NCBI RefSeq assembly: GCF_000027125.1
Contig: NC_017626.1
Source: Escherichia coli 042
GTDB lineage: Bacteria; Pseudomonadota; Gammaproteobacteria; Enterobacterales; Enterobacteriaceae
Strand: one strand, 5' to 3'
Length of the DNA: 64,000 nt
In this document: positions 13,560 to 23,104 of the stretch, one piece after another
Position numbering within the stretch: the first letter of the stretch is position 1
Layout: every line of letters starts with the position of its first letter
Program-made: the position numbers and the translations under genes
The notes under the pieces: generated by a model
Database searches by the model: none
Seen by the model: the letters and a program-made list of their open reading frames with translations, nothing else
Told to the model about the DNA's origin: nothing

Positions 13560-14499
13560 TGTTGCGTTACGTATTACGCCGCTTTCTGCTGCTGATCCCG
13601 ATGGTGCTCGCCGCCTCGGTGATCATTTTTCTGATGCTGCGCCTCGGCACCGGCGACCCGGCGCTCGATTATCTGCGTCTGTCTAACCTGCCGCCGACGC
13701 CGGAGATGCTGGCCTCTACACGCACCATGCTGGGGCTGGATCAGCCGCTGTATGTCCAGTACGGCACCTGGTTGTGGAAGGCGCTGCATCTTGACTTTGG
13801 TATCTCATTCGCCAGCCAACGCCCGGTGCTGGACGATATGCTGAACTTCCTGCCCGCCACGCTGGAACTTGCAGGTGCCGCGCTGGTATTAATTCTGCTC
13901 ACTTCCGTACCGCTCGGTATCTGGGCGGCGCGCCATCGCGATCGTCTGCCGGATTTCGCCGTACGTTTCATCGCGTTTCTCGGCGTGTCGATGCCCAACT
14001 TCTGGCTGGCGTTTTTGCTGGTGATGGCGTTTTCGGTATATCTGCAATGGCTACCCGCGATGGGCTACGGCGGCTGGCAGCACATCATTTTGCCTGCGGT
14101 TTCCATTGCCTTTATGTCGCTGGCGATTAATGCACGGCTACTGCGCGCCAGCATGCTGGACGTCGCCGGTCAGCGTCACGTGACCTGGGCGCGGCTACGC
14201 GGCCTGAATGACAAACAGACCGAGCGTCGTCATATTCTGCGCAATGCCTCGCTGCCGATGATCACCGCCGTGGGGATGCACATTGGCGAACTGATTGGCG
14301 GGACGATGATTATCGAAAACATCTTTGCCTGGCCGGGCGTCGGGCGCTATGCGGTGTCGGCGATTTTTAACCGTGACTATCCGGTGATCCAGTGCTTTAC
14401 GCTGATGATGGTGGTGGTTTTTGTGGTCTGTAATTTGATTGTTGATTTGCTCAACGCCGCGCTGGACCCGCGCATTCGTCGTCATGAAGGAGCCCACGC

Positions 14500-14503
<4 letters not shown>
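13559..14503 (+). CDS. nikB: Nickel ABC transporter permease NikB
   Basis: 314 aa polytopic permease; translationally coupled to nikA. Confidence 0.95.
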
Positions 14504-17306
<2,803 letters not shown>

Positions 17307-17504: not shown

Positions 17505-18251
17505 ATGAAATCATTGAGTAAGTCGTCACAAATACCGCTCTATCAACAAGTGGTGGAGTGGATAAGAGAAAATATTTATACCGGGGATCTGGTGGAAGAC
17601 GATCGCATTCCTTCGGAATACCAGATTATGGATATGCTGGAAGTGAGTCGGGGAACCGTTAAAAAAGCTGTCGCCCAACTGGTAAAACAAGGCGTGTTGA
17701 TTCAGGTCCAGGGGAAGGGAACATTTGTCAAAAAAGAGAACGTGGCATATCCGTTAGGTGAAGGATTATTGTCATTCGCGGAATCGCTGGAAAGCCAGAA
17801 AATACACTTTACCACTGAAGTTATTACGTCACGGATTGAACCGGCTAATCGTTATGTGGCAGAGAAATTAAGAATAACGCCCGGTCAGGATATTCTTTAC
17901 CTTGAGCGTTTACGTTCAATTGGTGATGAAAAAGCGATGCTGATAGAGAACCGTATCAATATTGAGCTATGCCCCGGCATCGTGGAAATCGATTTTAATC
18001 AACACAATTTATTTCCAACAATAGAAAGTTTGTCGAAAAGAAAAATTCGTTACTCGGAAAGTCGCTATGCCGCGCGATTAATTGGTAATGAACGCGGTCA
18101 TTTTTTAGATATCTGTGAAGATGCACCCGTTTTGCATCTGGAGCAATTAGTCTTTTTCTCCCGAGAGTTACCCGTTGAGTTTGGCAACGTCTGGTTAAAA
18201 GGAAATAAATATTATCTGGGCACCGTGCTGCAACGGCGGGAATTGAGTTAA
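17505..18251 (+). CDS. GntR-family transcriptional regulator (HTH + UTRA effector domain)
   Basis: ORF 17496-18251; HTH segment EYQIMDMLEVSRGTVKKAVAQLVKQGVL; precedes the PTS genes. Confidence 0.75.
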   Translation: MKSLSKSSQIPLYQQVVEWIRENIYTGDLVEDDRIPSEYQIMDMLEVSRGTVKKAVAQLVKQGVLIQVQGKGTFVKKENVAYPLGEGLLSFAESLESQKIHFTTEVITSRIEPANRYVAEKLRITPGQDILYLERLRSIGDEKAMLIENRINIELCPGIVEIDFNQHNLFPTIESLSKRKIRYSESRYAARLIGNERGHFLDICEDAPVLHLEQLVFFSRELPVEFGNVWLKGNKYYLGTVLQRRELS

Positions 18252-18275
18252 ATACACTTTTTTATGAGGAATAAA

Positions 18276-18749
18276 ATGCAAGGCATACAGTTTCAGGAAA
18301 ATTATATTCAACGACTTCCGGCAGGGTTAAGCGTTGAACAGATCATCCGTCAGTTAGCGCAACCGTTGGTTGCTGCTGAGCTGGTGGTCCCTGATTTTGC
18401 CGATCACGTACTGAAACGTGAGGCGACGTACCCAACGGGGCTGCCTACCGAACCACCGTGCGTCGCCATTCCGCACACGGACCATAAATATGTCAGGCAC
18501 AATGCAATTGCCGTCGGCATCCTTCCGGAACCGGTAGAGTTTGCCGATATGGGCGGCGATCCTGACCCCGTACATGTCAGGGTGATTTTTTTGCTCGCCT
18601 TAAGTGAAAGTAATAAACAATTAAATGCCCTGGGCTGGATTATGGAGATGATTCAGGATACGCCCTTTATGCGCGCCCTGCTTACGATGGAAACAACAGA
18701 AATACACACAGTAATCTTAAACAAAATGAAAGAACGAGGTGAAATATGA
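18276..18749 (+). CDS. PTS EIIA component (fructose/mannitol/galactitol type)
   Basis: ORF 18264-18749; ATG 18276 has a GAGGA RBS; phosphorylatable His context AIPHTDH. Confidence 0.75.
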   Translation: MQGIQFQENYIQRLPAGLSVEQIIRQLAQPLVAAELVVPDFADHVLKREATYPTGLPTEPPCVAIPHTDHKYVRHNAIAVGILPEPVEFADMGGDPDPVHVRVIFLLALSESNKQLNALGWIMEMIQDTPFMRALLTMETTEIHTVILNKMKERGEI

Positions 18750-19027
18750 GTCAAACCATTTTATTTGTCTGCGCCACGGGTATAGCCACATCCACGGCGG
18801 TAACAGAAAAAGTCATGGAATATTGTAAAGAGCACGGTCTTAACGTCAATTATTCCCAAACCAACGTTGCCTCTTTACCTGGAAATACTGACGGCGTAGC
18901 ACTGGTAGTCTCAACGACTAAAGTGCCTTATGAACTCGACGTCCCGGTGGTTAACGGCTTGCCGATTATTACCGGTATTGGCGAAGAGAAAGTACTGGCG
19001 CAAATTGTTTCGATCCTTAAAAAGTAA
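18746..19027 (+). CDS. PTS EIIB component (galactitol type, Cys-phosphorylated)
   Basis: 93 aa; N-terminal ILFVCATGIATS motif typical of GatB-like EIIB. Confidence 0.8.
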   Translation: MSQTILFVCATGIATSTAVTEKVMEYCKEHGLNVNYSQTNVASLPGNTDGVALVVSTTKVPYELDVPVVNGLPIITGIGEEKVLAQIVSILKK

Positions 19028-19103
19028 TTAATAATAATTAATTTCAACCCACTCCATCAGGCGCTAACGCGAGGTGCGCTCTCGCCTGAAAAAGAGGTTT
19101 ATT

Positions 19104-20462
19104 ATGAACGATATCGCGCATACCCTCTATAATATTGTGCAATATATATTGGGATTTGGTCCCACGGTAATGTTGCCGTTGGTGTTATTTATTCTTGCTC
19201 TCTTTTTTAAAGTAAAACCCGCTAAAGCCTTACGTTCGTCATTAACGGTCGGCATTGGTTTTGTCGGTATTTATGCCATTTTCGATATTCTTACCAGCAA
19301 TGTCGGGCCAGCGGCCCAGGCGATGGTTGAACGCACCGGAATTAATTTACCGGTGGTGGATTTAGGCTGGCCGCCGCTTTCCGCTATTACATGGGGTTCG
19401 CCAATTGCCCCGTTTGTTATTCCCCTGACTATTCTGATTAACGTGGCGATGCTGGCGTTAAATAAAACCCGCACCGTTGACGTAGATATGTGGAACTACT
19501 GGCATTTTGCCCTTGCCGGTACGCTGGTTTATTACAGCACCGGCAGCCTGTTCTTTGGTTTGCTGGCAGCGGCGATTGCTGCGGTGGTAGTACTTAAACT
19601 CGCCGACTGGTCTGCGCCACTGGTACAAAAATACTTTGGCCTGGAAGGGATCTCTTTGCCGACGCTCTCTTCGGTGGTGTTCTTTCCGGTCGGTCTGTTG
19701 GTCGACAAAATCATCGACCATATCCCCGGCCTCAATCGTATTCATATCGATCCGGAAACCGTACAGAAAAAGTTTGGCATATTCGGCGAACCGATGATGG
19801 TTGGTACTATTCTGGGCATTCTGCTCGGCGTAATTGCCGGATACGATTTCAAAAAAGTCTTGCTGCTTGGCATCAGCATTGGCGGTGTGATGTTCATCCT
19901 GCCACGCATGGTTCGCATTCTGATGGAAGGTTTATTACCGCTGTCTGAAGCCATTAAAAAGTATCTCAATGCCAAATACCCTGACCGTGACGATCTCTAT
20001 ATCGGCCTGGATATCGCCGTTGCCGTAGGTAACCCAGCGATTATCTCCACCGCCCTGCTGCTGACGCCAATCTCGGTCTTTATCGCGTTTGTCCTTCCGG
20101 GTAATGAAGTCCTGCCGCTTGGCGACCTTGCCAACCTGGCGGTAATGGCGTCGATGATTGCTTTAGCCAGCCGTGGCAACATTTTCCGCACCGTTCTGGC
20201 GGCGATTCCGGTGATTATTGCCGATCTGTGGATTGCGACTAAAATCGCGCCGTTTATTACCGGAATGGCGAAAGACGTTAATTTCAAATTTGCCGAAGGC
20301 TCCAGCGGCCAGGTCTCCAGTTTCCTTGATGGCGGTAACCCGTTCCGCTTCTGGCTGCTGGAAATCTTCAACGGCAATCTCATCGCCATTGGTCTGGTGC
20401 CGGTTATCGCCCTGGTACTGTATGGTATTTTCCGAATGACGCGGAGCACGGTTTATGCCTGA
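19104..20462 (+). CDS. PTS EIIC permease (galactitol/GatC-like)
   Basis: ORF 19074-20462; ATG 19104 preceded by AAGAGG RBS; polytopic membrane protein. Confidence 0.8.
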   Translation: MNDIAHTLYNIVQYILGFGPTVMLPLVLFILALFFKVKPAKALRSSLTVGIGFVGIYAIFDILTSNVGPAAQAMVERTGINLPVVDLGWPPLSAITWGSPIAPFVIPLTILINVAMLALNKTRTVDVDMWNYWHFALAGTLVYYSTGSLFFGLLAAAIAAVVVLKLADWSAPLVQKYFGLEGISLPTLSSVVFFPVGLLVDKIIDHIPGLNRIHIDPETVQKKFGIFGEPMMVGTILGILLGVIAGYDFKKVLLLGISIGGVMFILPRMVRILMEGLLPLSEAIKKYLNAKYPDRDDLYIGLDIAVAVGNPAIISTALLLTPISVFIAFVLPGNEVLPLGDLANLAVMASMIALASRGNIFRTVLAAIPVIIADLWIATKIAPFITGMAKDVNFKFAEGSSGQVSSFLDGGNPFRFWLLEIFNGNLIAIGLVPVIALVLYGIFRMTRSTVYA

Positions 20463-21963
20463 TAACAGCGCAGCTATCGTTATCGATATTGGCACCACCA
20501 ATTGCAAAGTCACCTGCTTTTCCTGCCTGGACGCAACGACGTTGGGCGCGCATAAATTCGTGACGGCAAAACAGATCTCCCCACAGGGCAATGTCGATTT
20601 CGATATCGACGCCCTCTGGCAGGAGGTCCGCCAGGCGATAGCGCAACTGAACGCCGCTTCGCCGCTGCCAGTCAGGCGGATAAGCATTGCCAGTTTTGGC
20701 GAGTCAGGCGTGTTCCTTGACGAGCATGGCGAGATCCTGACGCCAATGCTGGCATGGTATGACCGTCGCGGTGAAGAGTATCTGGCTACACTTAGCGAGG
20801 CAGACAGTGCGGCACTTTATGACATTTGCGGGTTACCGCTGCACAGCAATTACTCTGCCTTCAAAATGCGTTGGTTGCTGGAACATTACCCACTGCGTAA
20901 TCGCCGCGGCCTGCGTTGGCTACATGCGCCGGAAGTACTGCTCTGGCGGCTGACCGGCGAACAGCGCACGGATATCACCTTAGCCAGCCGCACGCTGTGT
21001 CTTGACGTGCGCAAAGGCGAATGGTCAGCGAAAGCGGCGGCGTTGTTACACGTTCCCTGTTCAGCATTTGCGCCATTGGTGCAGCCAGGCGAACACGCCG
21101 GATGGGTCAGCGAGTCGCTCTGCAAAACGCTTGGGTTCTCGCAACCGGTCAGCGTGACGCTGGCCGGACATGACCATATGGTGGGTGCGCGAGCGTTGCA
21201 GATGATGCCGGGCGATATCCTTAACTCGACGGGGACCACAGAAGGCATTCTGCAACTGGATACACAACCGACGCTGGATGAACAGGCCAAACGTGACAAG
21301 CTGGCAAACGGCTGTTATTCGCTTGCAAACCAGTTCACCCTGTTTGCGTCGCTGCCCGTGGGCGGTTTCGCTCTGGAGTGGCTGCGTAACACGTTCCGGC
21401 TAACCGATGAGGAGATCGCCGCATCACTTACTCGCGGACATGCGGATTACCTGGCGGGGAACTGGTCGCTCGATGACATTCCCCTCTTTATTCCACATCT
21501 TCGCGGTTCGGGTTCGCCCTATAAAAATCGCCATACTCGTGGATTATTTTATGGGCTTGGCGATACGTTAAATATCGACATGTTAATTGCCAGCGTCTCA
21601 CTGGGATTAACCATGGAATTTGCCAACTGCTTCGCCTGTTTTAATGTGCCTGGCACCAGCGCGTTAAAAGTGATAGGTCCGGCAACCCAAAATCCCCTTT
21701 GGCTGCAATTAAAAGCGGATATTTTACAGCGTCCGGTTGAAGCAATTGCATTTAACGAGGCGGTTTCTGTCGGAGCATTATTAACTGCCGCACCGGATAT
21801 TCCACCGCCGCAAGTTACCATAGCCCAACGTTTGTTACCGAATCGGGCGAGATACCATCAATTACAGCGTTATCAGCACAAATGGAAAAGCTGGTATCAG
21901 TTGAAATTACAGCAAGAAGGCGTGATGCCATTACACCATCGGGAGGAGCACTATGTTGAGTAA
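20455..21963 (+). CDS. FGGY-family carbohydrate kinase (xylulokinase-like)
   Basis: 502 aa; N-terminal AIVIDIGTTNCKV ATPase motif of FGGY kinases; overlaps EIIC stop. Confidence 0.75.
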   Translation: MPDNSAAIVIDIGTTNCKVTCFSCLDATTLGAHKFVTAKQISPQGNVDFDIDALWQEVRQAIAQLNAASPLPVRRISIASFGESGVFLDEHGEILTPMLAWYDRRGEEYLATLSEADSAALYDICGLPLHSNYSAFKMRWLLEHYPLRNRRGLRWLHAPEVLLWRLTGEQRTDITLASRTLCLDVRKGEWSAKAAALLHVPCSAFAPLVQPGEHAGWVSESLCKTLGFSQPVSVTLAGHDHMVGARALQMMPGDILNSTGTTEGILQLDTQPTLDEQAKRDKLANGCYSLANQFTLFASLPVGGFALEWLRNTFRLTDEEIAASLTRGHADYLAGNWSLDDIPLFIPHLRGSGSPYKNRHTRGLFYGLGDTLNIDMLIASVSLGLTMEFANCFACFNVPGTSALKVIGPATQNPLWLQLKADILQRPVEAIAFNEAVSVGALLTAAPDIPPPQVTIAQRLLPNRARYHQLQRYQHKWKSWYQLKLQQEGVMPLHHREEHYVE

Positions 21964-22222
21964 AACCGTGGAGGTCAGAAACAGTACTGGCCTGCATGCA
22001 CGTCCGGCGGCGTGTCTGGTGAAAGCCGCCAAAAAGTTTAGCTGTAAAGTGACGCTGCATTATGAGGGTAATGATATTAATGCCACCAGCATGATGAATA
22101 TTATGCGCGCCGGAATAAAAGGCGGCAAAACGGTGGAAATACGCTGCGAAGGCGATGATGAAAATGAGGCAATACAAACTCTCACCGCCTTATTTCGTGA
22201 TCGCTTCGGTGAAGCTGAATAA
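21953..22222 (+). CDS. HPr-like phosphocarrier protein paralog
   Basis: 89 aa; GLHARPAA motif containing the phosphorylatable His of HPr-family proteins. Confidence 0.75.
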   Translation: MLSKTVEVRNSTGLHARPAACLVKAAKKFSCKVTLHYEGNDINATSMMNIMRAGIKGGKTVEIRCEGDDENEAIQTLTALFRDRFGEAE

Positions 22223-22252
22223 TTAACTGATATTAAAAGATGAGGTTTTCAA

Positions 22253-23104
22253 ATGCCATTAGTTAATGGACGGATACTGCTCGACCGCATTCAGGAAAAA
22301 CGGGTATTAGCGGGCGCGTTTAATACCACCAATCTGGAGACGACGATTTCAATTTTAAACGCCATTGAGCGTTCAGGATTACCCAACTTCATTCAGATTG
22401 CGCCCACCAATGCACAACTCTCGGGATACGATTACATTTATGAAATCGTGAAACGTCACGCCGATAAAATGGATGTTCCGGTCAGTCTTCATCTGGATCA
22501 CGGGAAAACTCAGGAGGATGTTAAACAGGCGGTGCGCGCGGGCTTTACCTCGGTCATGATTGACGGTGCCGCATTATCTTTTGAAGAGAATATCGCTTTC
22601 ACCCAGGAAGCTGTCGATTTCTGTAAATCCTATGGCGTACCGGTTGAAGCGGAGCTGGGGGCGATTCTCGGCAAAGAAGATGATCACGTCAGCGAAGCCG
22701 ATTGCAAAACGGAACCGGAAAAGGTGAAGACCTTTGTCGAGCGCACCGGTTGCGACATGCTGGCAGTTTCTATTGGCAACGTTCATGGCCTGGACGATAT
22801 ACCGCGTATCGATATCCCCCTGCTGAAGCGCATTGCCGAAGTCTGCCCGGTGCCGCTGGTTATTCACGGCGGCTCCGGTATCGCCCCGGAAATATTACGC
22901 AGCTTTGTTAATTATCGCGTCGCTAAAGTAAATATCGCCAGCGATCTGCGCAAAGCGTTTATCACCGCCGTCGGCAAAGCGTATGTGAATAATCACAACG
23001 AGGCGAATCTGGCACGAGTGATGGCATCAGCAAAAAACGCCGTCGAGGAAGATGTGTATAGCAAAATCCTGATGATGAATGAGGGGCATCGGTTGGTTAA
23101 GTAA
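22253..23104 (+). CDS. Class II ketose-bisphosphate aldolase (GatY/KbaY/fructose-bisphosphate aldolase family)
   Basis: 283 aa; HLDHG zinc-binding motif, family-typical length. Confidence 0.8.
   Translation: MPLVNGRILLDRIQEKRVLAGAFNTTNLETTISILNAIERSGLPNFIQIAPTNAQLSGYDYIYEIVKRHADKMDVPVSLHLDHGKTQEDVKQAVRAGFTSVMIDGAALSFEENIAFTQEAVDFCKSYGVPVEAELGAILGKEDDHVSEADCKTEPEKVKTFVERTGCDMLAVSIGNVHGLDDIPRIDIPLLKRIAEVCPVPLVIHGGSGIAPEILRSFVNYRVAKVNIASDLRKAFITAVGKAYVNNHNEANLARVMASAKNAVEEDVYSKILMMNEGHRLVK

Follow-up and report, generated by a model that had tools for sequence, protein, structure and literature searches.

Why does an accessory sugar PTS island of Escherichia coli 042 carry an HPr-type phosphocarrier gene of its own, and what part might this carrier play alongside the general HPr encoded by ptsH? 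The locus lies in the window, that is, the whole 64,000-nucleotide stretch of contig NC_017626.1 (assembly GCF_000027125.1) analyzed here, along which all the positions are given.

The island HPr gene and its operon

The island consists of a seven-gene accessory operon located between nikR and yhhJ, all the genes of which are on the + strand. The first gene (17505..18251; RefSeq start, profile matches) encodes a transcriptional regulator of the GntR/UTRA family and is followed by the genes for three PTS components: an EIIA of the PTS_EIIA_2 family (18276..18749; profile match, RefSeq) with a candidate phospho-histidine in the motif VAIPHT, an EIIB (18746..19027; profile match) with a candidate phospho-cysteine in FVCATGIATS, and an EIIC of the galactitol (Gat) family (19104..20462 on the basis of the RefSeq start, the mechanical ORF starting at 19074). 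These are followed by a 502-aa FGGY-family carbohydrate kinase (20455..21963), which matches FGGY_N and FGGY_C, by the HPr gene and by a 283-aa class II aldolase of the FBA/GatY type (22253..23104), which matches PF01116 with 275 bits and NF005943 with 557 bits (cutoff 364). The operon thus encodes EIIA, EIIB, and EIIC, but no EI. The kinase belongs to a distinct subfamily showing the motifs DIGTTNCK, AGHDHMVGA, LNSTGTTEG, PHLRGSGSP, and KVIGPA, and it falls under the cutoff of every equivalog model with which it was compared.

The HPr gene (21953..22222, + strand) codes for 89 amino acids plus a stop, and its translation, MLSKTVEVRNSTGLHARPAACLVKAAKKFSCKVTLHYEGNDINATSMMNIMRAGIKGGKTVEIRCEGDDENEAIQTLTALFRDRFGEAE, includes the motif GLHARPAA. 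This ORF, which had been picked out as HPr-like in a previous sequence-only reading, is present in the ORF list and matches both PF00381 (PTS-HPr; E 2.2e-30, 105 bits for a cutoff of 23, profile positions 2–80 of 81) and TIGR01003 (105.9 bits, cutoff 47.9) far beyond chance. In RefSeq, a genome with 100% identity carries the same ORF as the CDS WP_000949583.1, labeled "HPr family phosphocarrier protein". The coordinates agree with the placement proposed in that reading, between the kinase and the aldolase with the HPr start overlapping the kinase stop: since HPr starts with an ATG at 21953 and the kinase ends with a TAA at 21961–21963, the two genes share 11 nt (ATGTTGAGTAA, 21953..21963, + strand), which suggests translational coupling. 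A Shine-Dalgarno core read from the sequence, GGAGG (21942..21946, + strand), lies 6 nt before the ATG, within the kinase gene at its 3' end, and no internal promoter or terminator exceeding the shuffle background was detected near the HPr gene.

The active-site residues His15 (CAT, 21995–21997) and Arg17 (22001–22003) are present, as is Ser46 (AGC, 22088–22090), all on the + strand, the motif GLHARPAA fitting the pattern G-[LIM]-H-[AT]-R-P. The loss of the conserved histidine on alignment had been named as an outcome that would speak against an HPr, and His15 proved to be invariant in every relative examined. No substitution of G13, H15, R17, P18, or A19 occurs in 27 aligned relatives or in any of the 33 HPrs of the enterobacterial modules described below. 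The AlphaFold2 model (pLDDT 95.6) predicts a beta-alpha-beta-beta-alpha-beta-alpha order (E2-7, H16-26, E32-37, E40-43, H47-53, E60-66, and H70-82) forming an open-faced beta-sandwich. In Foldseek, this model superimposes on the Thermoanaerobacter HPr 3LFG with a TM score of 0.96 and an rmsd of 0.9, and the best 41 matches are to HPr, Crh, or NPr only. The additional HPr of the island is genuine, intact, and conserved, and it had been annotated by homology before.

Comparison with other HPr-type carriers

The island HPr and PtsH belong to the same family, with the same predicted fold, and have His15, Arg17, Lys24, Lys27, and Ser46 in common, but they are only 36% identical, and the island HPr scores 56.5 bits against the PtsH equivalog NF008104, the cutoff of which is 153. 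The two also differ in their context and occurrence, since the island HPr gene is part of the nikR–yhhJ island, does not adjoin ptsI and is accessory, whereas ptsH belongs to the ptsHI-crr operon and is universal. The best solved match is the Thermoanaerobacter HPr (80 bits, vs. 48 bits for the E. coli HPr). Judging from its sequence, the island HPr is closer to Bacillota-type HPrs than to the E. coli HPr and is no close paralog of the E. coli HPr, NPr, or FPr. It differs from Crh in having retained His15, where Crh has a glutamine.

The sequence-only reading had drawn an analogy with NPr (PtsO), which, like the island HPr, is an E. coli paralog of HPr that stands alone and measures about 90 aa. 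That the island HPr works, like NPr, in a nitrogen or regulatory PTS is hardly credible: the one argument in favor of this idea is that some HPr paralogs are regulatory, whereas the two proteins are 33% identical, the island HPr reaches 51.9 bits against the NPr model NF008146 (cutoff 119), the two stand on separate branches of the tree, and they have different residues at positions 20–27. The context differs as well, the K-12 npr gene being located in the rpoN-hpf-ptsN-rapZ-npr cluster and the island HPr gene in a sugar-PTS operon. At Lys24, Lys27, and the hydrophobic residues 47/48, which we take to form the EI-facing surface, the two lysines being probable determinants of EI specificity, the island HPr resembles the E. 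coli HPr, whereas NPr has Glu and Gln at positions 24 and 27. The analogy with NPr is therefore not supported, in view of the score, the identity, the lack of an rpoN/ptsN context, and the retention of the two lysines.

Pathway-private carriers provide a closer functional parallel. In E. coli, FruB has a C-terminal HPr-like domain, FPr, which sets a precedent for a private carrier in enteric bacteria. FPr and the island HPr both have the His15 and Arg17 motif, and both operons combine EII components with a kinase that phosphorylates the substrate a second time, ahead of aldol cleavage. FPr, however, shares its polypeptide with EIIA-Fru and a linker domain, while the island HPr is an 89-aa stand-alone ORF and the island EIIA is encoded separately, three genes upstream, so that the island HPr is not a fused carrier. 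The two sequences are distant and occupy separate branches of the tree (64 bits against FruB NF008319, cutoff 302). The kinases also differ: that of the fructose operon is annotated as the 1-phosphofructokinase FruK, whereas the island kinase is of the FGGY type; the tagatose-1-phosphate kinase, for its part, is PfkB-type. D-tagatose PTS clusters of Klebsiella (tagKTH) carry a IIA/HPr component (PMC10101011) and, by description, TPr likewise belongs to an enterobacterial accessory rare-ketose PTS, which comes with an HPr-type module of its own and with a dedicated kinase and class II aldolase (PMC10101011). TPr differs in being fused to EIIA and in serving a transporter of the fructose family, whereas the island transporter is of the Gat family. 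The likeness to FPr and TPr is functional only.

The reading we prefer, with a probability of about 0.62, is that the product of the gene is a working phosphocarrier of the HPr type, standing alone and reserved for the galactitol-family PTS of the island. We infer the phosphotransfer steps, EI as the donor, and insulation as the purpose. Enzyme I, encoded elsewhere, would phosphorylate His15 of the island HPr, and the phosphoryl group would then pass to the island EIIA, its presumed acceptor (at the histidine in VAIPHT), to EIIB (at the cysteine in FVCATG), and to the incoming sugar at EIIC. The FGGY kinase would phosphorylate the sugar phosphate a second time, and the class II aldolase would then cleave it. 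With a private HPr, the island would have its own branch from EI, such as FPr provides for fructose and TPr for tagatose, and the flux through the island would therefore neither depend on the general HPr pool nor drain it. Insulation from the general PTS, which had been suggested in the previous reading, is compatible with the evidence and is presumably part of this role.

Distribution and conservation of the island HPr

Among 5,426 complete E. coli genomes, the island HPr gene was found in 1,635 (approximately 30%), each match covering at least 80% of the gene, and ptsH in 5,425, which bears out the claim that this HPr is a private one occurring besides ptsH. The island HPr mostly shows 90–95% nucleotide identity among E. 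coli strains, while ptsH shows at least 99%. The gene is under purifying selection (dN/dS about 0.05–0.15), with values of 0.10 vs. Citrobacter amalonaticus and 0.12 vs. the O157:H7 allele.

Eighty loci carrying the same kinase subfamily were surveyed. An HPr gene is present within the module in 33/33 loci of Enterobacterales, in 4/26 of Bacillota, and in none of the 15 actinomycete loci, all of which keep the kinase and the aldolase and lack both the PTS and HPr. Since these PTS-less loci have no HPr, the latter tracks the PTS-containing module and not the kinase alone. A private HPr is absent from the module in 22 of the 26 Bacillota loci and in all those of Gilliamella (3/3) and Coriobacteriia (3/3), and the pathway therefore has no intrinsic need of one. 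Its presence in all the enterobacterial loci, together with a dN/dS of approximately 0.1, supports the conclusion that the island HPr is a conserved component of the module and no stray ORF.

In the tree, the island HPr, STM3779 of Salmonella, and the other enterobacterial module-linked HPrs form a clade of their own. The module HPrs of Bacillota appear to have been recruited independently, and a private HPr has apparently entered the module at least three times, the presumed recruitments being the enterobacterial A+B clade, the Bacillus-like copies of Bacillaceae, and a copy lacking Ser46 that directly follows the Paenibacillus kinase. The Salmonella locus of the survey (L010), the gene content of which indicates that it corresponds to STM3779–3785, has the same module (GntR, EIIA, EIIB, EIIC-Gat, an FGGY kinase 63% identical, and an aldolase 90% identical to those of the island) and an HPr of the same clade. 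STM3779 nevertheless differs in being only 44% identical to the island HPr, in having Gly46 where the latter has Ser46, and in being located 3' of the aldolase, whereas the island HPr overlaps the kinase. Ser46 is present in the island HPr and throughout type A, and since all the type B module HPrs have Gly at this position, it is not conserved across the clade. In Bacillota-type HPrs, Ser46 is the regulatory site phosphorylated by HprK/P; to our knowledge, E. coli has no HprK/P.

The idea that a foreign EIIA needs a compatible foreign HPr was also considered. The type B HPrs, which share approximately 78% identity, occur with EIIAs of two lineages between which identity is only approximately 30%, and this argues against tight co-adaptation between HPr and EIIA. 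These diverged EIIAs, along with the host-like private HPrs of Bacillaceae, weaken the idea.

The near-universal presence of ptsH in E. coli genomes speaks against a dedicated role, and PtsH might serve the island EIIA equally well, all the more so as a general HPr serves many EIIA types. The island HPr would then be a redundant passenger, able to carry phosphate but having no distinct role in E. coli. The private HPr is, in addition, missing from most of the non-enterobacterial versions of the module, and sporadic split variants of the gene exist. These variants, which were considered and rejected as signs of decay, are located at an A5 run and occur mostly in assemblies with many broken neighboring genes. 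Redundancy is unlikely, given that the gene has been kept in all the enterobacterial loci, in two gene orders and two module classes, with the low dN/dS and the gene coverage reported above.

A search of the literature on the island HPr or STM3779 yielded no functional study, only statements of "unknown specificity" and transcriptome tables. The Salmonella island has been described as a PTS of unknown specificity (PMC3604774), and a published analysis of Salmonella subspecies I counts it among the gains of the ancestor of that subspecies. The vpe locus, which was considered as a possible match, is a different island adjoining deoK. In E. coli EDL933, Z4879 ("phosphocarrier protein") was induced approximately 4- to 6-fold (log2FC 2.1–2.6) in bovine digestive contents, together with Z4875–Z4877, which are annotated as galactitol-type IIA, IIB, and IIC (PMC6199705). 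On the basis of the consecutive numbering and the annotations, these four genes probably belong to the EDL933 copy of the island, Z4879 being the presumed ortholog of the island HPr gene.

The neighboring kinase and the place of the island HPr in the PTS

Since HPr inhibits LsrK, and HPr~P activates the GlpK of Gram-positive bacteria, the island HPr might mainly or additionally regulate the adjacent FGGY kinase, its phosphorylated or unphosphorylated form binding to the enzyme and switching it, which would tie the second phosphorylation to PTS flux. The gene order is in keeping with this possibility in some genera: the HPr gene lies 3' of the kinase gene in E. coli, Citrobacter, and Pantoea, its start overlapping the kinase stop in all three (by 32 nt in Pantoea, and by 26 nt in a metagenomic enterobacterial locus beside nikR), and the Paenibacillus HPr, although independently derived, is directly 3' of the kinase. 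The gene is located 3' of the aldolase, however, in most of the enterobacterial loci, including those of Salmonella, Klebsiella oxytoca, Sodalis, and Rahnella and all the class 2 modules. The class 2 modules also contain two Zn-dehydrogenases, which points to a polyol/ketose pair. Since HPr follows the kinase in some genera and the aldolase in others, its position is not tied to the kinase, and the actinomycete loci with the kinase and without a PTS have no HPr.

The protein sequences are similarly divided on the matter of regulation. The three fastest-evolving proteins of the island are EIIA, the kinase, and HPr, and the island HPr has retained the hydrophobic residues Met47 and Met48. FGGY kinases are known PTS targets, as illustrated by the LsrK-HPr co-crystals 5YA0–5YA2, where contact occurs via HPr residues 47/48 and His15 (PMC8016206), and an accessory EIIA homologue is reported to have an effect on glycerol kinase in Klebsiella (PMC5770620). 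On the kinase side, the residues of the HPr pocket of LsrK seem not to be conserved in the island kinase: in an alignment that is weak (approximately 20–25% identity), E122, L123, I148, L151, L152, A155, Y162, M210, and A211 of LsrK correspond to T, L, A, M, R, L, N, L, and L, so that Glu122 is missing and only part of the pocket is hydrophobic. Nor is there any histidine matching the GlpK phosphorylation loop, the GlpK site being, as we understand it, a phosphorylatable His in a loop that precedes the catalytic Asp motif by about 13 residues: no His precedes GHDH in the loop of the island kinase, KTLGFSQPVSVTLAGHDH, and none is conserved there among 16 subfamily members. Taken as a main or additional function, regulation of the kinase is a minor possibility.

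A further proposal is that the pathway intrinsically needs its own HPr, the phosphorylation state of which would be a flux switch reporting transport to the FGGY kinase or the GntR regulator and gating the second phosphorylation or induction. This is quite unlikely; if true, it would mean that a mobile catabolic island carries a built-in, LsrK-like HPr-kinase control circuit.

It is also very improbable that the kinase takes its phosphoryl group directly from HPr instead of ATP, in the manner of a Dha kinase, and we know of no FGGY enzyme using a protein phosphodonor. On one metagenomic contig, an HPr 48% identical to that of the island is encoded directly 3' of DhaK-DhaL, beside a Gat-type PTS, and the GG found in the adenine pocket of GlpK and LsrK is replaced by IGP/IGA in the kinase subfamily. 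Against this, the kinase has kept the catalytic motifs GHDH and TGTT, and IGP and the other FGGY motifs are just as well conserved in homologues from Bacillota and actinomycetes that lack a private HPr or even the whole PTS. The IGP motif had also been considered as a sign of a degenerate ATP site, indicating either a pseudo-kinase or dependence on HPr, and this was rejected because the motif is invariant throughout the subfamily, even in the PTS-less actinomycetes. Separately, the 594-aa protein P0218, which in view of its length had been a candidate for a kinase-HPr fusion, turned out to be a Sel1-repeat protein with two HPr domains.

In enteric bacteria, the general phosphoryl pool controls catabolite repression, and private HPrs decide whether a PTS branch draws on this pool or is shielded from it. 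As a carrier dedicated to its own PTS, the island HPr would add a stand-alone example to the dedicated carriers FPr, TPr, and NPr, and it does not challenge the current understanding of the PTS. The island is present in about 30% of the complete E. coli genomes, including those of O157:H7 and ABU 83972, and identifying its substrate and the need for a private HPr would clarify a trait involved in niche adaptation.

The HPr gene and its genomic setting

In the chromosome of Escherichia coli 042, the nikABCDE-nikR genes end at position 17306 of the window and are followed by seven co-directional, closely packed genes on the plus strand, encoding a GntR/UTRA regulator (17505-18251), an EIIA (PTS_EIIA_2; 18276-18749), an EIIB (18746-19027), an EIIC of the Gat family (19104-20462), an FGGY kinase (20455-21963), an HPr (21953-22222) and a class II aldolase (22253-23104; NF005943, 557 bits). 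The yhhJ and rbbA genes lie 3' of the aldolase gene on the opposite strand. In O157:H7 strain F6321, a hicA/hicB toxin-antitoxin pair, absent from the window, is located between the aldolase gene and yhhJ (locus L002, 8865-9496).

The HPr gene has an ATG start and 89 codons, and its product is MLSKTVEVRNSTGLHARPAACLVKAAKKFSCKVTLHYEGNDINATSMMNIMRAGIKGGKTVEIRCEGDDENEAIQTLTALFRDRFGEAE. The kinase TAA is at 21961-21963 and the HPr ATG at 21953, 11 nt within the kinase gene; a GGAGG core (21942-21946) lies 6 nt 5' of this ATG. The product matches the Pfam PTS-HPr profile over nearly its full length (E = 2.2e-30) and the NCBIfam HPr family TIGR01003 with 105.9 bits (cutoff 47.9), and in a genome with 100% island identity, RefSeq calls the identical ORF "HPr family phosphocarrier protein." The description given in the sequence-only reading, a private HPr inside a PTS island with its start overlapping the kinase stop, was correct throughout. 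No promoter-like or terminator-like sites above the shuffle background were found flanking the gene, which is therefore taken to be internal to the operon.

The island is accessory in E. coli: the 6-kb segment and its HPr gene were identified in 1635 of the 5426 complete genomes, including those of O157:H7 and ABU 83972, and were chromosomal in every case. The ptsH gene is present in 5425 of these genomes (with at least 99% identity in 5420), so that the island HPr supplements PtsH and does not replace it.

An enterobacterial HPr subfamily and its module

The residues His15, Arg17, and Ser46 are all present in the island HPr, which shows 36, 33, and 39% identity to E. coli HPr, NPr, and Bacillus subtilis HPr, respectively. 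In the NCBIfam search, it scored below the equivalog cutoffs of all the models scored: 80 bits with the Bacillota-type HPr NF010352 (cutoff 110), 64 with FruB (302), 56.5 with PtsH (153), and 51.9 with NPr (119). NPr had previously been suggested as a regulatory parallel, which is not borne out by this last score, the level of identity, the different genomic context or the separate branch in the tree. The closest solved structure in terms of sequence is that of the Thermoanaerobacter tengcongensis HPr (80 bits, vs. 48 for E. coli HPr and 42 for NPr). The AlphaFold2 model (pLDDT 95.6) shows the canonical beta-alpha-beta-beta-alpha-beta-alpha order and a TM score of 0.96 with 3LFG. In an exhaustive HMMER search on 1.84 billion representatives, only orthologs of the island HPr exceeded approximately 50% identity, and ordinary HPrs formed a diffuse cloud at 48% or less. 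A 594-residue Sel1-repeat protein in the representative library (P0218) ends in a tandem pair of HPr domains, both containing the His15 motif.

The same module, with a near ortholog of the HPr, is found in Citrobacter, in Pantoea, and in a metagenomic enterobacterium, where it adjoins nikR; the kinase-HPr overlap is kept in all three. Using the FGGY kinase subfamily as a handle, we surveyed 80 named genome loci, which were annotated by phmmer. An HPr gene was present within the module at all 33 loci in Enterobacterales, 4 of the 26 in Bacillota, and none of those in Gilliamella (0/3), Coriobacteriia (0/3), and actinomycetes (0/15), the last of which have kept the aldolase and FGGY kinases and carry no PTS genes. 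Two enterobacterial types can be distinguished: type A (Ser46, signature SMMNIMRAGIKGG), encoded immediately 3' of the kinase in Escherichia, Citrobacter, Pantoea, and Enterobacter cancerogenus, and type B (Gly46, signature KGMMSILGAGVKGN), encoded 3' of the aldolase in Salmonella, K. oxytoca, Sodalis, Rahnella, Cedecea, and others. In a neighbor-joining tree based on distances only, without support values, the two types form a single clade that excludes E. coli HPr, NPr, the FPr domain, and Bacillus HPr. Within Bacillota, the HPr genes of the four positive loci appear to have been recruited independently: in three Bacillaceae loci, the cluster ends with a gene for a Bacillus-like HPr that has no EI gene next to it, and in Paenibacillus alkaliterrae, a divergent HPr with Asn replacing Ser46 is encoded immediately 3' of the kinase. 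The four genes are at L065 (12935-13204), L075 (14376-14642), L078 (near 14329-14643), and L058 (11519-11770).

Type B HPr was also found in all 13 class 2 modules, in which two Zn-dehydrogenase genes accompany a strongly divergent PTS and kinase (28-58% identity). At the Raoultella planticola locus (L060, 7664-15840) and 12 similar ones, the order is EIIA-EIIB-EIIC-kinase-ZnADH-GntR-aldolase-HPr-ZnADH, and the GntR-aldolase-HPr block closely resembles its E. coli counterpart (the aldolase is 82-90% identical). Class 2 clusters are mosaic in make-up and probably act on a polyol. At all 15 actinomycete loci (L054, L067, L069, L072-L074, L080, L085-L091, and L093), the aldolase gene adjoins an FGGY kinase gene of the same subfamily, and a GntR regulator and one or two additional FGGY kinases are also encoded; the arrangement resembles a version of the pathway that dispenses with the PTS, where a second FGGY kinase may take over the phosphorylation step.

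Comparisons between the E. coli island (17505-23104) and that of Enterococcus sp. 665A (L036) gave amino acid identities of 77% for EIIC, 68% for EIIB, and 69% for the aldolase, vs. only 38% for the kinase and 40% for EIIA. The similarity of the module across phyla is thus unusually high, and the pattern suggests that it was transferred horizontally and that its genes then diverged unevenly or were in part replaced. Among enterobacterial loci (L017, L005, the Salmonella locus L010, and others), EIIB, EIIC, the aldolase, and GntR are 81-96% identical to those of the island, while EIIA, the kinase, and HPr evolve several-fold faster (58-83%, with HPr as low as 40%); these could be co-evolving partners or merely proteins under weaker constraint.

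A proposed dedicated phosphocarrier and the alternatives

The most economical reading is that the island HPr is probably a dedicated phosphocarrier: phosphate would pass from EI to its His15, then to the EIIA His (VAIPHT), the EIIB Cys (FVCATG), and lastly the sugar at EIIC. All the residues required by this relay are visible in the island proteins. The first phosphate would be added by the PTS and the second by the FGGY kinase, and aldol cleavage would come last, as suggested by the PTS-less actinomycete clusters, where two or three FGGY kinases accompany the aldolase, and by the extra polyol-type dehydrogenases of the class 2 and Bacillaceae clusters. The lack of any dehydrogenase gene in the E. 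coli island points to a ketose as substrate. The design resembles those of the enteric fructose system (FruB/FPr) and the tagatose system with IIA/HPr.

A regulatory link of the HPr to the FGGY kinase is worth keeping in mind, since the PTS repeatedly targets FGGY kinases, as seen in the LsrK-HPr crystal structures (PMC8016206), and both the type A translational overlap and the position of the Paenibacillus gene point to a link with the kinase. However, the LsrK pocket residues and Glu122 do not appear to be conserved in the island kinase (in an alignment at only approximately 20-25% identity), and no GlpK-type His loop was found in the alignments of the island kinase and its subfamily. The occurrence of HPr follows that of the PTS within the module rather than that of the kinase by itself, and the position of its gene relative to the kinase varies across Enterobacterales, which favors a role in the PTS over a kinase-specific one. 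The apparently repeated recruitment of private HPrs hints at a pathway-intrinsic HPr switch that would control the kinase or the regulator, a reading that we consider improbable. At window positions 21670-21690 (kinase residues ~405-413), the adenine pocket contains a subfamily-invariant KVIGP(A), where GlpK has DGG and LsrK GGG.

A Dha-like donation of phosphate to the kinase is suggested only by a distant analog on a metagenomic contig (L099, 1110-8267), where an HPr 48% identical to that of the island is encoded immediately 3' of DhaK-DhaL; it is contradicted by the intact FGGY motifs of relatives without HPr. The L099 HPr, the neighborhood of which also includes a Gat-type PTS, a PRD regulator, and a PF00596 aldolase, may itself be a minimal DhaM-like donor.

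As to the purpose of a dedicated phosphocarrier, compatibility with a foreign EIIA is an unattractive explanation: type B HPrs are nearly identical although the EIIAs that they accompany share only approximately 30% identity, and the private HPrs of Bacillaceae resemble the host HPr. We therefore prefer an insulated EI branch.

Conservation and expression

The dN/dS ratio of the island HPr ranges from 0.05 to 0.15 in informative pairs (0.10 with C. amalonaticus, dS 1.19), and each of the 1635 matches in E. coli covers at least 80% of the gene. A role redundant with that of PtsH is possible, but sits uneasily with a dN/dS of about 0.1 and with the retention of HPr at 33/33 enterobacterial loci. 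Split versions (32 + 57 residues), broken at an A5 run (22031-22037, codons 27-28), recur in public assemblies, mostly those in which neighboring genes are also fragmented; in at least one contig (L095, 5906-6174), all the neighboring genes are intact, so that some of these versions may be true frameshifts.

Homology-based annotation and entries in transcriptome tables exist for this HPr; no functional study of it turned up in the literature searches. In strain EDL933, Z4879 ("hpR, phosphocarrier protein") is up-regulated (log2FC 2.1-2.6) in the contents of the bovine small intestine, rectum, and rumen, together with Z4875-Z4877, encoding galactitol-type IIA, IIB, and IIC (PMC6199705); from the consecutive tags and the annotations, we infer that Z4875-Z4877 and Z4879 belong to this island. 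Z4874, presumably the island regulator judging from the tag order, appears among the strongly RpoS-dependent genes (PMC2907692). The Salmonella counterpart has been described as an AT-rich island repressed by H-NS which "encodes a complete PTS with unknown specificity" (PMC3604774). In E. coli NCTC 86, a second region putatively encoding a PTS, 98% identical to one of O157:H7 Sakai and with no function assigned in 2017 (PMC5382810), could be this island or a different one.

The island HPr is a genuine, conserved accessory HPr, and an expressed one via the inferred identity of Z4879. It constitutes an enterobacterial subfamily of its own, bound to an uncharacterized Gat-PTS/FGGY-kinase/aldolase module, and is a pathway-private HPr.
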